Assembly: GCA_010093995.1 (NCBI GenBank)
Contig: ML992508.1
Span: 1,343,274-1,407,273, forward strand
Direction of reading: 5' to 3'
Length of the DNA: 64,000 bases
Source of the DNA: Elsinoe ampelina
Lineage: Eukaryota
A model generated the notes under the pieces. It did not search any database. It was given only the letters and a program-made list of their open reading frames with translations, and was not told the DNA's origin. A program made the position numbers and the translations under genes. Below, piece after piece: positions 2,439-6,331 of the stretch. Each line of letters starts with the position of its first letter. Position 1 is the stretch's first letter.

Positions 2439-3757
2439 ACCTTTATATACTTTAATTATTAAGAACTATAACCTGTCTTTAATAAAGTGCCTTAATACAC
2501 TAGAGTTATAGATTACTCTATTCTTACTATAGGTTAAGAATAATAATATAGATACTACTACTACTCTATAGACTAGTATAATAATATTAATATTAGTGTT
2601 AGAGTGTTTATCTAATTTACCTAACTTAGTAGATTCTCTAGATTCTTTAATAGCTACTTAACCTCTAACTTTCTTAGTCTTTAACTTATTACCTTTACCT
2701 CTAGCCTTTATATCTTTATTATTTAATCTATCTTTATTATCTCTTTTACTTTAACTCTTTAGTACTTTCTTAGAGTACTACTTAAAGTAATCTATATTAG
2801 AGTAGATATAATAAGTATACTAAGTGTATTAATCCTTAATATAACTAGCTACTCTATAAATAGAGTTTAGATTAGTTCTTCTATTATATAAAAACTTCTA
2901 TATTCTAAGAGAGCCTATTATCTCTTTAAGACTCTTCTTATAGTTAAGGCTAGATCTCTAGCTCCTTAACTATTTAGTAGTCTCTATTCCTATAATAAAT
3001 ATAGTCTTAATATAGTATAGAGAGAGCCTAAACTTATCTAGTTTAGTACTAATAGTGCTTACTCTTTACTCTATAGTAATAGTATATTAATAATAGTACT
3101 TTATAAAATCTTTATAGTACCTTTAGGTATTATAACTTATTATAATTACCTTATTAAGGTTATAGATAGCTATATATAGCTTATATAAAATAATAGGTTT
3201 AAATGTAGCTTTAATAGTATCTAGAAGTTTCTTTAAAGTCTTCTAAGTTATACTATAGTAAGGTCTAATAGATTTATAAATTCTTATTATAATAATACTA
3301 TAAGTAATTCTATTATTCTTATACTAGGTCTTATTCCTAACTTTATAAATTGCCTTAGTGCCTTTACTAGTATCTAGAGCTAGTTCTTTAGGCTTTATAA
3401 CTACTAGTATCTAGTTAATATTATAAATTATATATCTAAGTATATCCTTTTTAAGGAGGGCTACCTTAAGGATTAATCTTTAAGTATTATAGTTGCTTTC
3501 TCTCTTAAGAATCTAAGTCTCGAGCATTTTTGCTAATCTAGACATAATAATAGTAATTAGCTAAAGGCTTATTAATTTAATTAATGTAATTAGCTTATTT
3601 AAGCTATTTAAGCTGTTTAATTAAAGGGTTAATACGGGCTACTATAAGTGTTTATCTTAATGTAGCTAGTCTAGAATTCAGTGTAGGCGGCTTAGTAATT
3701 CTTTTAATAATAATATACTTAATTTGCTATAGCTTTAAGTGCTTTTATAGAAGCGCC

Positions 3758-3769
3758 GGGCTTATAACC
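3758..3769 (-). other. Primer binding site of the copia element
   Basis: The minus strand reads GGTTATAAGCCC immediately after the LTR terminus ...TAACA. This is one G>A (RIP-type) change from the GGTTATGAGCCC PBS typical of copia elements. Confidence 0.85.
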
Positions 3770-3914
3770 TGTTATAACTCCTGGCAAATCGGATCGAGAG
3801 ACGTGTGTTTTATTCAGAGAGTTACAATAACCGATTTATCTACTGTGCGTGCGCTGACTCATTAGTGCCAGTTCTTCAGTACCAGAGAAGCTGTACCAGC
3901 CTTCCATTACAACA
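3770..3914 (-). repeat. 5' LTR (145 bp) of the copia element
   Basis: Termini TGTTG...TAACA on the minus strand, abutting the PBS. Minus-strand TAGATAAAT (3842-3834) is followed by AATAAA (3814-3809), matching U3-R-U5 order. The partner LTR is outside the window. Confidence 0.8.
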
Positions 3915-4043
3915 TCACAAACTCGGAGGCTCGGCCCGTCGATCGGCGGATGAGATTGAGAACCCTGATTTGACACCTCTCCACAGCTTCACTTTTTGCG
4001 ACAACCAATTACTCTGCGACTCGACGCACACGCTCGATCGAAC

Positions 4044-6080
4044 ATGTCGTGGCGCAACCAAGGTATCACTGGCAGCAACAACATCCCTCTGGGTAGTCGC
4101 CGTAGGTTCGGTGGTGATGATGGACCCGACGGCTCGCCTATGGATGGGGGAGCTCCAGAACAGAGCTTGAAGAGAGGGCGCAGTCCGGTGAGAGGTGAGT
4201 CGACCACCACACGTCGAATCGTGTTCGAGAAACCAACATTCGATACAGAGCTCAATCCGGACGGCACGAAGAAGAGGAAGAAGAGAAACCGATGGGGCGA
4301 AGCCAAAGAGAACAAGGCAGCAGGTCTGATGAACCTTCCAACAGCAGTCCTAGGGAACATGACTTCCGAGCAGCTGGATGCCTACACTCTTCATCTTCGT
4401 ATCGAGGAGATCAGTCAGAAGCTGAGAATCAATGATGTTGTCCCAGCCGATGGCGATAGGTCGGTTACCTACAGAATGAGGGCCAGCGCAAAGACTGACA
4501 CATTGGACAGATCTCCTTCCCCTCCTCCGCAATATGACAACTTCGGTCGCCGTGTCAATACACGTGAATATCGTTACAAGAAGAAGCTTGAAGACGAGCG
4601 CCACAAATTGGTCGAAAAAGCTATCAAGATTATCCCGGGATACCATCCACCGTCAGACTACCGCCGTCCTACCAAGACCCAAGAAAAGGTCTATGTGCCG
4701 GTCAATGATTACCCAGAAATTAACTTCAGTACGATAACTAACCCTCACACTTCTAACATAACCCCTATCTTTAGTCACTGCCATCGGCTGCTGTTATGCT
4801 CCTTGATACATATCAAGAGCTTGACGCAGTTGATCCAGAGAGCTACTTACACTTTGTATTTCTTTAACAGAACATGATGACTAACACTTTATCTCTTACT
4901 AACAGTCGGTCTGCTTATTGGACCTCGTGGCAACACGTTAAAGAAGATGGAAGCCGAATCCGGCGCAAAGATCGCCATTCGCGGAAAGGGCTCCGTCAAG
5001 GAAGGAAAGGGTCGTTCTGACGCCGCTCACGCCAGCAACCAGGAAGAAGATCTGCACTGCCTGATCATGGCCGATACCGAGGACAAGATCGAACGGGCCA
5101 AGAAGGCAATCCACAATGTCATCGAGACTGTAAGTAAAGCTCCTTCCCTGTCATTGCTGTTGATCGCTGACATATTACAGGCTGCCTCTATTCCAGAAGG
5201 CCAGAACGAGCTGAAGCGCAACCAGCTCCGTGAGCTCGCAGCTCTTAACGGTACGTTACGTGACGATGAAAACCAAGCCTGCCAGAACTGTGGTGAGATT
5301 GGCCACCGCAAGTACGACTGCCCGCAGCAACGCAACTACACGGCAAACATCATCTGCCGTGTCTGCGGCAACGCTGGACACATGGCTCGCGACTGTCCAG
5401 ACAGACAGCGTGGCCAGAATTGGCGTAACGATGGACCACCTCAGCGTCCGATGATCGGCGCTGGTACTGGAGAGGCCGATCTCGACTCGTTCCTCAGCGA
5501 GCTCTCTGGACAGCCTAACAAGCGTATCGAGGCGGGACCTGCTGGAGGCGCCGGTGGAGCAAAACCATGGGAGCGAAGCGGTGGAGGCGGAGGTGGAGGC
5601 TCAGCTCCTTGGGCATCCGGAGGGCAAGGTGGTGGCGGTGGTGGTGGAGCTGCTCCTTGGGCTTCCGGCGGTGGCCGTGGTGGAGGTCGCGATAGCTACA
5701 GTGGAGGGTATGGCGGCGGTTCCAGCGGCGGCTCTGCCCCGTGGGGTCAACAGGGAGGTGGCCAGGGAGGCTATGGAGGGCAAAGCGGATACGGTCAACA
5801 AGCCGGCGGCTACGGCCAGCAAGGTGGAGGCTATGGTCAGCAAAGTTATGCCCAACAGAGTGGAGGCTACGGCTATGGAGGATACGACAATGCCAGCTAC
5901 GGACAGGTTCCTGGTTCTGCTCCTTGGCAGTCCGGAGGTGCTCCTCCGCCTCCACCTCCAGGCGGAGATGCCCCTCCGCCACCAGTAAGTTAAAATCCTT
6001 TTCCAAGGATGATGGCATCGTACTAACATATTTAGCCGCCTGGTCAAGACGCTCCCCCACCTCCACCGCCTGGAGCATAG
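4044..6080 (+). CDS. MSL5: Branchpoint-bridging protein / splicing factor 1 (KH-QUA2, two CCHC zinc knuckles, Gly/Pro-rich tail); introns 4460-4510, 4729-4905, 5130-5180, 5985-6035
   Basis: Motifs KRKKRNRW (ULM), RSPSPPP, spliced INFIGLLIGPRGNTLKKME...IRGKGS (KH), LKRNQLRELAALNGTLR (QUA2), CQNCGEIGHRKYDC and CRVCGNAGHMARDC. GT-AG introns restore the frame. Confidence 0.96.
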
Positions 6081-6331
6081 ATCCAGCCTTGGCGATATCC
6101 CCCGTTGCCAACGACGTCAGCACATGCGCAGGTCACCTCAACGCTGTGCTCAGCACTCCCAACCAAGATCAACAAGCGTTCAGGTGTGGCATATAAGACC
6201 GCTGAAGTAGCCAAAATGCATTTCCCTTTCTCTCATCTCGATCTGTCCCGTCCCAACTTCCCCCTCCTCAGATTCCGGCTATGTACAATCCTCTACGTTC
6301 CCATCCCCTCCCCTCCACCAGCCCCAGCCAT

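Follow-up and report, generated by a model that had tools for sequence, protein, structure and literature searches.

Why should the gene for the protein that recognizes intron branch points carry an intron crowded with that protein's own binding motif? Introns are committed to splicing by the branch-point-binding protein (BBP/SF1), which is regarded as constitutive, and we know of no account of how its level is set in any fungus. The question arises from one gene in the window, the whole 64-kb stretch of DNA analyzed here. Pfam matches the SF1 helix-hairpin domain (PF16275) to exons 2 and 3 (E 1.2e-12 and 1.2e-24, respectively) and a KH-I_KHDC4-BBP domain (PF22675) to exon 4 (E 1.6e-19), with GPRG as its GxxG loop in translation. 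Two CCHC zinc knuckles are also present, with zf-CCHC (PF00098) matches in two stretches. Identity of the KH exon is 100% with the BBP of Elsinoe ampelina and 91 to 99% with named branchpoint-bridging proteins. By this combination of an SF1 helix-hairpin domain, a BBP-type KH domain, zinc knuckles, and orthology, we identify the gene from its sequence as the SF1/BBP (Msl5) orthologue. RNA contigs show GT..AG joints for all five of its introns, and the layout is as follows.

4044..6080, + strand: SF1/BBP (Msl5) gene, ATG to TAG, six exons, 550 aa, by exon assembly and translation.
4195..4248, + strand: intron 1, 54 nt, fully spliced in RNA contigs.
4460..4510, + strand: intron 2, 51 nt, fully spliced in RNA contigs; served as a control intron.
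4729..4905, + strand: intron 3, 177 nt, phase 1, loaded with CTAAC and selectively retained.
5130..5180, + strand: intron 4, 51 nt, fully spliced in RNA contigs; served as a control intron.
5985..6035, + strand: intron 5, 51 nt, fully spliced in RNA contigs.

An earlier, sequence-only reading had singled out intron 3 as 177 nt long beside three others of 51 nt. The 177 nt is right, but the other introns number four (54, 51, 51, and 51 nt). Intron 3 lies between ...EINF and (I)GLLIGPRG, splitting the KH domain five codons before the GPRG loop. Because the Pfam KH match on exon 4 starts at profile position 10 of 76, the cut falls just before the GxxG loop, as the sequence-only reading had stated.

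The motifs reported for intron 3 are all where they were said to be: CTAAC at 4738, 4753, 4881, and 4899, further TAAC at 4735, 4759, and 4865, and a TACTAAC (4897-4903) fused to the AG of the productive acceptor (4904-4905). UACUAAC is given as the BBP site in passages of PMC3378887 and PMC4338336. The + strand of the window holds 18 CTAAC, with a Poisson P of ~2e-7 for at least 4 in 177 nt, and with both strands checked, intron 3 is the sole place in the window with at least 3 CTAAC within 200 nt. The recognition motif of BBP is thus clustered beyond chance in BBP pre-mRNA (4 CTAAC in 177 nt; orthologue median, 5). The splice signals and motif groups of the intron are these.

4729..4734, + strand: weak 5' splice site GTACGA, position +6 not T.
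4736..4757, + strand: 5' cluster of branch-site-like motifs, AACTAAC at 4736-4742 and TTCTAAC at 4751-4757, too near the 5' splice site for branching.
4879..4885, + strand: GACTAAC, the probable working branch site, with branch A at 4884, 21 nt from the acceptor G.
4897..4905, + strand: TACTAAC plus acceptor AG, branch-site-like, which cannot be the branch for this AG.

To ask whether this arrangement is peculiar to one gene, we ran the comparison across relatives that the sequence-only reading had proposed. An intron in the same codon phase was present in 66 of 79 orthologous metagenome loci, whose best named matches were Dothideomycetes, Eurotiomycetes, Leotiomycetes, and Sordariomycetes; these introns comprise 61 distinct sequences, falling into 39 clusters at 80% intron identity. 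As controls we used 98 other introns of the same genes, in place of genome-wide intron statistics. Position, length, and CTAAC clusters proved to be conserved. The orthologous introns measure 137 to 245 nt (median, 183) and carry 2 to 6 CTAAC (median, 5), versus a control median of 54 nt and CTAAC counts of 0 in 52 controls, 1 in 44, and 2 in 2; introns neighboring intron 3 in the BBP genes span 45 to 102 nt. Shuffling gives an expectation of 0.27 CTAAC per intron, and the observed count was reached in only 37 of 61,000 shuffles. Across 280 kb of flanking fungal DNA, just two clusters of at least 3 CTAAC turned up, each with 3. The intron has been lost from one genomic lineage, L013, and is therefore dispensable at least there.

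What is kept within the intron is a set of poor splice signals and oddly placed motifs. None of the 61 orthologous introns has T at position +6 of its 5' splice site, compared to 78 of the 98 controls. The first CTAAC begins at intron position +9 or +10 in 54/61, and spacing between motifs of the 5' cluster is 7 to 9 nt in 62 of 76 gaps. Branch-A equivalents there lie at most 31 nt from the 5' end in 128 of 135 motifs, whereas in 86 control introns the distance is at least 36 nt. The same features hold when each cluster is counted once by its representative (+6 non-T in 39/39; first motif at +9/+10 in 35/39). Toward the 3' end, ACTAAC is invariant in the intron alignment, and NACTAAC lies 20 to 30 nt from the 3' splice site in 59/61, beyond the predicted branch-acceptor distance of normal introns (8 to 18 nt in 81 of 86 controls). 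A motif fused to the acceptor is found in 48 of the 61 introns, as CTAAC-AG in 25, CTAA-AG in 18, and CTA-AG in 5, and the acceptor is AAG in 34/61, versus 2/98 controls. The center of the intron is barely alignable, while the splice-signal modules are kept. Thus, the BBP/U2 motif recurs where branching is sterically useless, 9 to 31 nt from the 5' splice site and over the acceptor AG, and one good branch site lies between these two groups.

Is such an intron removed normally? Four sequencing runs were taken as RNA derived because their contigs skip introns, the run labels having only guessed at RNA; the RNA evidence throughout consists of assembled contigs rather than read counts, and rare forms may be missed. 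Spliced RNA contigs join 4728 to 4906. Retention had been foreseen as one possible outcome, and it does occur, at a high level and for intron 3 only: in three of the four runs this intron alone is retained, at roughly 40 to 100%, and no RNA contig of the four runs covers any other BBP intron. Run X15 yielded a single contig, which keeps intron 3 and has lost the other four. In run X1 the retained unitig has a depth of 15.9 versus 11 for the spliced form, and in run X3 the depths are 13 and 19.7, respectively; run X5 yielded the spliced form only, at a depth of 602.7. A second species behaves alike. Its contig L033 has a poly(A) end and matches the genomic contig L049 at 100% identity; the 51-nt and 56-nt introns of L049 are gone from it, but the 160-nt intron is kept. 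Among 12 cDNA-like metagenome contigs, 7 keep only the long intron and 5 are fully spliced. A single intron is thus kept in polyadenylated transcripts from which the others have been removed (X15 contig; L033 versus L049), as in detained introns, and the retained form, seen in three of four runs and 7 of 12 cDNA-like contigs, is a natural unproductive isoform. The stop predicted for retention, TGA at 4875-4877, is correct; across relatives, the retention stop lies in frame inside the intron in 60/61 and just past it in the remaining one. Retention truncates the protein ahead of the RNA-binding loop, and the KH domain is lost in every nonproductive form, as had been claimed. That the retained form is so abundant at steady state would, if anything, favor its being protected from nonsense-mediated decay (NMD).

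Taken together, these observations suggest that intron 3 is a conserved regulatory intron, often retained ("detained"), which probably lets BBP limit its own synthesis; we give this reading a probability of roughly 55%. We regard as an even bet the broader proposal that, across most Pezizomycotina, BBP/SF1 gauges its own free concentration through an intron of decoy branch sites, with excess protein diverting transcripts into a nuclear, unspliced, untranslatable pool. With little free BBP, the working branch site alone would be engaged, together with BBP's partner on the pyrimidine tract, and the intron would be removed. When BBP is in excess, the flanking sites would be filled too, and splicing would stall because BBP there would crowd the 5' splice site and mask the acceptor. 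The conserved signals fit such a device, being poor at each point: a weak 5' splice site, a branch site farther from the acceptor than in normal introns, and in many cases an AAG acceptor. The motif on the productive acceptor, conserved in 48 of the 61 distinct introns, fits occlusion of the real 3' splice site, which the sequence-only reading had also invoked. We infer that BBP is the reader of these motifs; U2 snRNA reads the same motif. BBP is the only protein reader of it in fungi that we know of. In favor of the reading, when the related KH protein QKI binds ACUAAC elements in tandem, neither site can be used (PMC13004596). Against it, BBP is to our knowledge without the dimerization domain by which QKI binds tandem sites cooperatively. 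By analogy with what BBP does for budding yeast pre-mRNA, the BBP-bound unspliced RNA might be held in the nucleus, and we propose this holding as the reason why the retained form is abundant rather than degraded. When yeast loses BBP, pre-mRNA escapes to the cytoplasm and becomes subject to NMD (PMC2377449). Two counterpoints concern the response to dose. High-affinity flanking sites might already be occupied when BBP is low, and inhibition would then be constant instead of following dose. Also, full splicing in run X5 at very high expression fits regulation, but a difference in culture condition with no bearing on BBP level would fit it as well.

Autoregulatory unproductive splicing is well known from SR proteins, PTB, and hnRNPs. 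Portions of work on the RBM39 poison exon (PMC10477243) and of a survey (PMC6547761) describe this class. The BBP gene shares with it the protein's own motif clustered in its own pre-mRNA, an isoform with a premature stop, and deep conservation, and we found all three of these: motif clustering, an unproductive isoform, and a conserved element. It differs in that the factor is the core branch-point recognizer and not an auxiliary regulator, in that the cis element is a constitutive splice signal at unusable positions, and in that the output is retention of a whole intron, not a poison exon. QKI is similar as a KH/STAR-type protein acting on ACUAA(C), at least two copies of which jointly block sites in the part of PMC13004596 that treats them, and its family feeds back on its own transcripts, according to an excerpt of PMC5695090. 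However, QKI is a dimeric competitor of SF1 in animals, whereas here 4 to 6 sites are arranged about the two splice sites of an intron in BBP's own gene.

Ribosomal proteins in yeast also regulate their own genes through introns, RPL30 being one instance. In the case of RPL22, the protein binds its own gene's intron and blocks spliceosome assembly, leaving unspliced RNA (PMC13630204, in part). These proteins bind a structured mimic of their rRNA site, whereas the BBP intron offers a linear array of splice-signal motifs. A closer relative of the proposed nuclear step is the retention by BBP/Mud2 in Saccharomyces cerevisiae, where BBP bound to branch sites keeps unspliced RNA nuclear and off NMD (a passage of PMC2377449, citing Rutz and Seraphin 2000). 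Retention of the BBP/Mud2 type would explain the abundance of polyadenylated intron-retaining transcripts; it differs in being a general surveillance role, with no known action on the MSL5 gene. That gene has, as far as we know, no intron in S. cerevisiae. Animal detained introns are single introns kept in otherwise spliced, polyadenylated transcripts, often of splicing-factor genes. BBP intron 3 is likewise singly kept in the contigs, and we know of no description of a sequence logic of decoy branch sites for detained introns. In Yarrowia lipolytica, the consensus CTAAC-N-AG places the branch site beside the acceptor. The likeness is the CTAAC directly ahead of AG at the 3' end; however, the fused arrangement is genome-wide and working in that yeast, whereas it is an exception in these Pezizomycotina genes because control branches lie 8 to 18 nt upstream.

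A literature search, with most subscription journals and supplements outside its scope, returned no description of a fungal BBP/SF1 gene with an intron that is autoregulatory or rich in CTAAC. A text search of a Fusarium transcriptome preprint (10.1101/2021.11.08.467853) had no match on the topic, and a paper on the plant SF1 family (PMC7433366) does not mention autoregulation. If true, no feedback loop acting on branch-point recognition would have been described before the one proposed here, and a constitutive splice signal would be seen to serve, in a new manner, as material for a regulatory element. A conserved, sequence-defined sensor would make the question of BBP level directly testable, through short cis elements at exact positions, and natural variants are at hand in the intron-loss lineage and in lineages with CTAAC-AG, CTAA-AG, or no fused motif. 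Such work would yield rules for the repression of splicing by misplaced branch sites. The retained intron would also explain the proneness of the BBP gene to mis-annotation and the apparent "truncated" transcripts in fungal transcriptomes.

The strongest competitor, possible although distinctly less probable than BBP dosage sensing, accepts a regulated retained intron with a different sensor, namely, titration or misplacement of U2 snRNP, or a gauge of spliceosome capacity or of growth or stress condition. CTAAC is also the U2 pairing site, and after the working branch site there is usually AC and often ACTT (ACTTAG in 27/61), which, judged by the U2 sequence, would presumably lengthen U2 pairing. 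Moreover, retention differs sharply among runs and studies, as expected for a response to conditions. Yet a sensor other than BBP leaves unexplained why the device sits in the BBP gene, when clusters of at least 3 CTAAC are otherwise almost absent (the two in the flanking fungal DNA noted above). The motif placed exactly over the acceptor AG is likewise unexplained, as U2 pairing there has no obvious use.

The sequence-only reading had further supposed that excess BBP promotes upstream decoy acceptors, naming two candidates.

4773..4774, + strand: AG of candidate decoy acceptor TTTAG, with no sign of use and not conserved.
4865..4870, + strand: candidate decoy acceptor TAACAG, with no sign of use; (A)ACAG counterparts in some relatives.

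The stops predicted for them are right (AG 4774 leading to TGA 4804-4806; AG 4870 to TAA 4882-4884), but no joint at either AG occurs in the RNA contigs of the four runs, and none of the 12 cDNA-like metagenome contigs uses an internal acceptor. That reading therefore survives in part: the exceptional conserved intron and its retention stand, and the decoy acceptors find no support. One could still hold that decoy acceptors followed by NMD are the main unproductive outcome, with products invisible at steady state, since contigs drop rare, unstable forms. In 58 of the 61 orthologous introns an internal YAG lies 5 to 7 nt after branch A, and an AG occurs at most 15 nt upstream of the main branch site in 43/61, AG 4870 having counterparts in some relatives. 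We consider this unlikely. The conserved proximal AG is nearer to the branch than 81 of the 86 control acceptors and may be sterically unusable; its use would add 13 to 24 nt with no preferred frame, and the E. ampelina intron is without such an AG. AG 4774 is not a conserved feature, since an AG falls in the first 60 nt in only 25/61 introns. Retention, in addition, is already abundant enough to explain downregulation. The conserved TAG after the branch site was also considered as an in-frame stop and dropped, as lengths modulo 3 are spread 24/22/15.

It is improbable, and somewhat more so than the decoy acceptors, that there is no regulation at all, that is, that intron 3 is a long, slowly spliced intron in which repeated branch motifs are redundancy that aids splicing and retention is noise. 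Short-intron fungi handle long introns poorly, and the central segment tends to fold, like long yeast introns that bring their ends together. However, neutral long introns would be expected to shrink or vanish, and their neighbors are short; the weak features are themselves conserved in 39 diverged lineages, and most of the extra motifs sit where branching is impossible.

The central segment itself is as follows.

4771..4883, + strand: central segment with a predicted fold, MFE -34.8 kcal/mol, z -3.48.

The unusual length of the intron and its structured center in some clades might suggest that it hosts another element, such as a gene for a small RNA or a stwintron, a nested intron whose removal takes two steps. 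We consider this very unlikely. The center is not conserved in sequence, and Rfam, searched up to E 10 for the intron and at the gathering score for the whole window, gave no match in either, which speaks against a small RNA. As for a stwintron, no intermediate joint appears in the RNA contigs of the four runs (short-lived forms could be missed), and no internal GT donor is conserved in the alignment. Pairing of the 5' GCTAA with a downstream TTAGC was tried and dropped, since the two sides do not covary in an alignment by eye. The predicted central fold leaves both motif clusters mostly single stranded. Across orthologues it is weaker, with a median z of -1.08 and z below -2 in 15/61 (against mononucleotide shuffles only), and given this modest signal we treat the central structure as a spacer, not a key element. 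A hairpin specific to one clade lies in the intron center, with compensatory changes in 4 of its 14 pairs.

The SF1/BBP (Msl5) gene carries its SF1 helix-hairpin domain in exons 2 and 3, its BBP-type KH domain in exon 4, and two CCHC knuckles in exon 5 (Pfam). Its KH exon matches the branchpoint-bridging protein of Elsinoe ampelina at 100% identity and the E. australis counterpart at 99%, which places the window in that genus or very close to it (Myriangiales, Dothideomycetes). Contigs of four runs from three studies were compared over 3900-6300, and since all five introns show up among them as GT..AG joints, these contigs are RNA-derived and the gene model below is confirmed.

4044-6080, + strand: SF1/BBP (Msl5) gene, six exons, 550 aa
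4195-4248, + strand: intron 1, 54 nt
4460-4510, + strand: intron 2, 51 nt
4729-4905, + strand: intron 3, loaded with CTAAC, 177 nt
5130-5180, + strand: intron 4, 51 nt
5985-6035, + strand: intron 5, 51 nt

A public Elsinoe ampelina BBP model (P0001, 413 aa) is the same as the window protein until ...GAKPW, after which it diverges and ends early. One RNA contig covers 5181-5984 without a joint, so this model is likely to have a spurious intron in its glycine-rich stretch. Directly upstream of the gene, 3000-3780 is very AT-rich and without a long ORF, and resembles the border of an AT-rich (RIP-type) block.

Intron 3 holds CTAAC at 4738, 4753, 4881, and 4899, three further TAAC, and a TACTAAC joined to the acceptor AG (4897-4905). 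When rechecked on the sequence, every motif coordinate given by the sequence-only reading was correct, and translation bore out the three premature stops it had predicted. Its intron sizes (177 nt against three others of 51 nt) also stand, except that there are four other introns, the additional one being 54 nt. The + strand of the window contains 18 CTAAC, which puts the Poisson probability of four in 177 nt at ~2e-7, and intron 3 is the sole site with at least three CTAAC per 200 nt in the 64 kb on both strands.

Both forms of intron 3 were found in RNA, at retained-to-spliced ratios that are rough, as the depths come from contigs, which may miss rare isoforms.

Forms of intron 3 in each run
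X15: retained in the only contig, across 4509-5129, which lacks the other four introns; no spliced joint
X1: retained in a unitig (4699-4935) at depth 15.9; spliced in a unitig at depth 11
X3: retained at depth 13; spliced at depth 19.7
X5: no retained form; spliced the sole form, at depth 602.7

Depth in bins over introns 2 and 4 equaled their exon share, leaving zero cover within these introns, and the retention of intron 3 is thus not explicable by DNA contamination.

An alignment of 19 BBP proteins served as the query for a scan of metagenome contigs, which yielded 79 loci; intron presence was scored by anchoring on the peptides that flank the junction. The intron lay at exactly the same codon phase in 66 loci, was absent from 6, and had its junction off the contig in 7. 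With the window's intron included and six duplicates removed, there were 61 distinct introns, forming 39 clusters at 80% intron identity. Aligning them, a check proposed by the sequence-only reading, revealed conserved position, length, and CTAAC clusters. The best named matches (>~85% identity) span four classes and include Penicillium (L040 and L066), a Dothideomycete (L025 and L027) together with Plenodomus (L002 with L051 and L052), powdery mildews (L037), and Fusarium (L017). Loci L001, L002, L003, L007, and L009 lack the long intron and all other tested introns and look like cDNA; L002 is the spliced transcript of genomic L051/L052. L013, on a 36-kb genomic contig (BBP at 2501-4350), kept introns 2 and 4 and lost the long intron, and its lineage is a natural control for this loss.

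The long introns measure 137 to 245 nt (median, 183) and carry 2 to 6 CTAAC each (five in 26, four in 20, six in 11, three in 2, and two in 2), versus 45 to 102 nt (median, 54) for our controls, 98 distinct introns 2 and 4 taken from those genes, of which 52 have no CTAAC, 44 have one, and 2 have two. Shuffled long introns averaged 0.27 CTAAC, with the observed count reached in 37 of 61,000 shuffles, and 280,157 nt of locus DNA outside the long intron held just two clusters of three CTAAC per 200 nt.

Retention recurs in other species. Among 12 cDNA-like contigs, 7 retained the long intron and none retained intron 2 or 4. One of the orthologous loci, L033, ends in an A run and matches genomic L049 at 100% identity; the 51-nt intron 2 and 56-nt intron 4 of L049 are missing from it, and the 160-nt long intron is present. 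Once the long intron alone is taken out, L004, L024, L033, and L045 regain a complete open frame, and L021, L037, and L040 regain one that stays open as far as the contig reaches. Retained forms all lose the KH domain because an in-frame stop falls within the long intron (60/61) or 25 nt past it (1/61).

The 5' splice site is GTATGA in 36 of the 61 introns, GTACGA in 12, and a near variant in the remainder; T at +6 occurs in 0/61, versus 78/98 controls. The first CTAAC begins at +10 in 48 introns and at +9 in 6, and the first 50 nt contain two copies in 31 and three in 18; 62 of 76 gaps between copies measure 7 to 9 nt. In 128 of 135 cases, the branch-A equivalents of this cluster fall within 31 nt of the 5' end; among 86 controls, every predicted branch point is at least 36 nt from it. 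The intron center can hardly be aligned across orthologues and tends to fold (z, -3.48 in the window; orthologue median, -1.08; 15/61 below -2); one clade has a hairpin of its own in which four pairs are compensated. When the window's intron 3 is folded in silico, the probable working branch site GACTAAC would pair with TTTAGTCA (4878-4885 with 4770-4777), a segment containing AG 4774.

At the working branch site, in the 3'-terminal 45 nt (4860-4905 in the window), ACTAAC shows no variation in the alignment (NACTAAC in 59/61), and a conserved TTGAYCA element lies 6 to 12 nt upstream. The ACTAAC-ACTT block may lengthen pairing with U2. The acceptor is 20 to 30 nt away (median, 24), a greater distance than in any control (a predicted 8 to 18 nt in 81 of 86). 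A proximal YAG, absent from the window and L030, follows the branch A by 5 to 7 nt in 58/61, a shorter distance than in nearly all control acceptors; its use as an acceptor was never seen in the contigs examined. After a pyrimidine-rich stretch, introns end in CTAAC-AG (25), CTAA-AG (18), or CTA-AG (5), and an AAG acceptor is found in 34/61, versus 2/98 controls. Judged by the 5' splice site, branch distance, and acceptor features, all three splice signals are kept weak, and the extra branch-site motifs sit precisely where branching fails, beside the donor and over the acceptor.

Taken together, the long intron is conserved, selectively retained, and loaded with motifs, and its weak signals are conserved. 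Feedback through unproductive splicing is a known type of circuit. Two papers describe the CTAAC-type motif as the binding site of BBP (PMC3378887, PMC4338336). We favor, at a probability of about 0.55, the long intron being a BBP dose sensor, because the placement of the extra motif copies fits this role. Limiting BBP would occupy the single productive branch site; excess BBP would also occupy the array near the donor and the site over the acceptor, so that assembly would stall. Two reports make this plausible: neither site is usable in tandem ACUAAC elements bound by QKI, a protein related to BBP (PMC13004596), and loss of BBP in budding yeast lets pre-mRNA escape to the cytoplasm and NMD (PMC2377449). 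From the yeast leak, unspliced RNA laden with BBP should remain nuclear, which would account for the abundance of retained forms. The full-text literature searched, in which few subscription journals are represented, contains no description of fungal BBP/SF1 autoregulation or of the long intron. If the reading is true, feedback on the branch-point recognizer made of misplaced branch sites would be a novel variant of unproductive-splicing circuit.

The same motif is also bound by U2 snRNA, and which factor reads the motifs in the long intron is inferred. The main rival, tentative and clearly less probable than the dose sensor, is that retention is regulated by U2, or else by the cell's overall capacity for splicing or by growth conditions. 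The decoy acceptors of the sequence-only reading, AG 4774 and AG 4870, are doubtful: internal AGs are conserved among long introns, but these two window AGs are not the conserved ones, and no joint ends at either among contigs of the four runs, which can miss rare isoforms. Plain splicing inefficiency of the long intron is more improbable still, being hard to reconcile with weak features conserved over 39 lineages, and a hosted RNA or nested intron is the least credible.

In the clade of locus L010, a CTTAGCTT unit flanks the working branch site on either side, an apparent tandem duplication of a branch-plus-acceptor unit. The short intron 2 of L010, L011, L012, L023/L026, and L029 ends in TGACAG, a branch-like motif abutting the acceptor that recalls the fused acceptor motif of the long intron.
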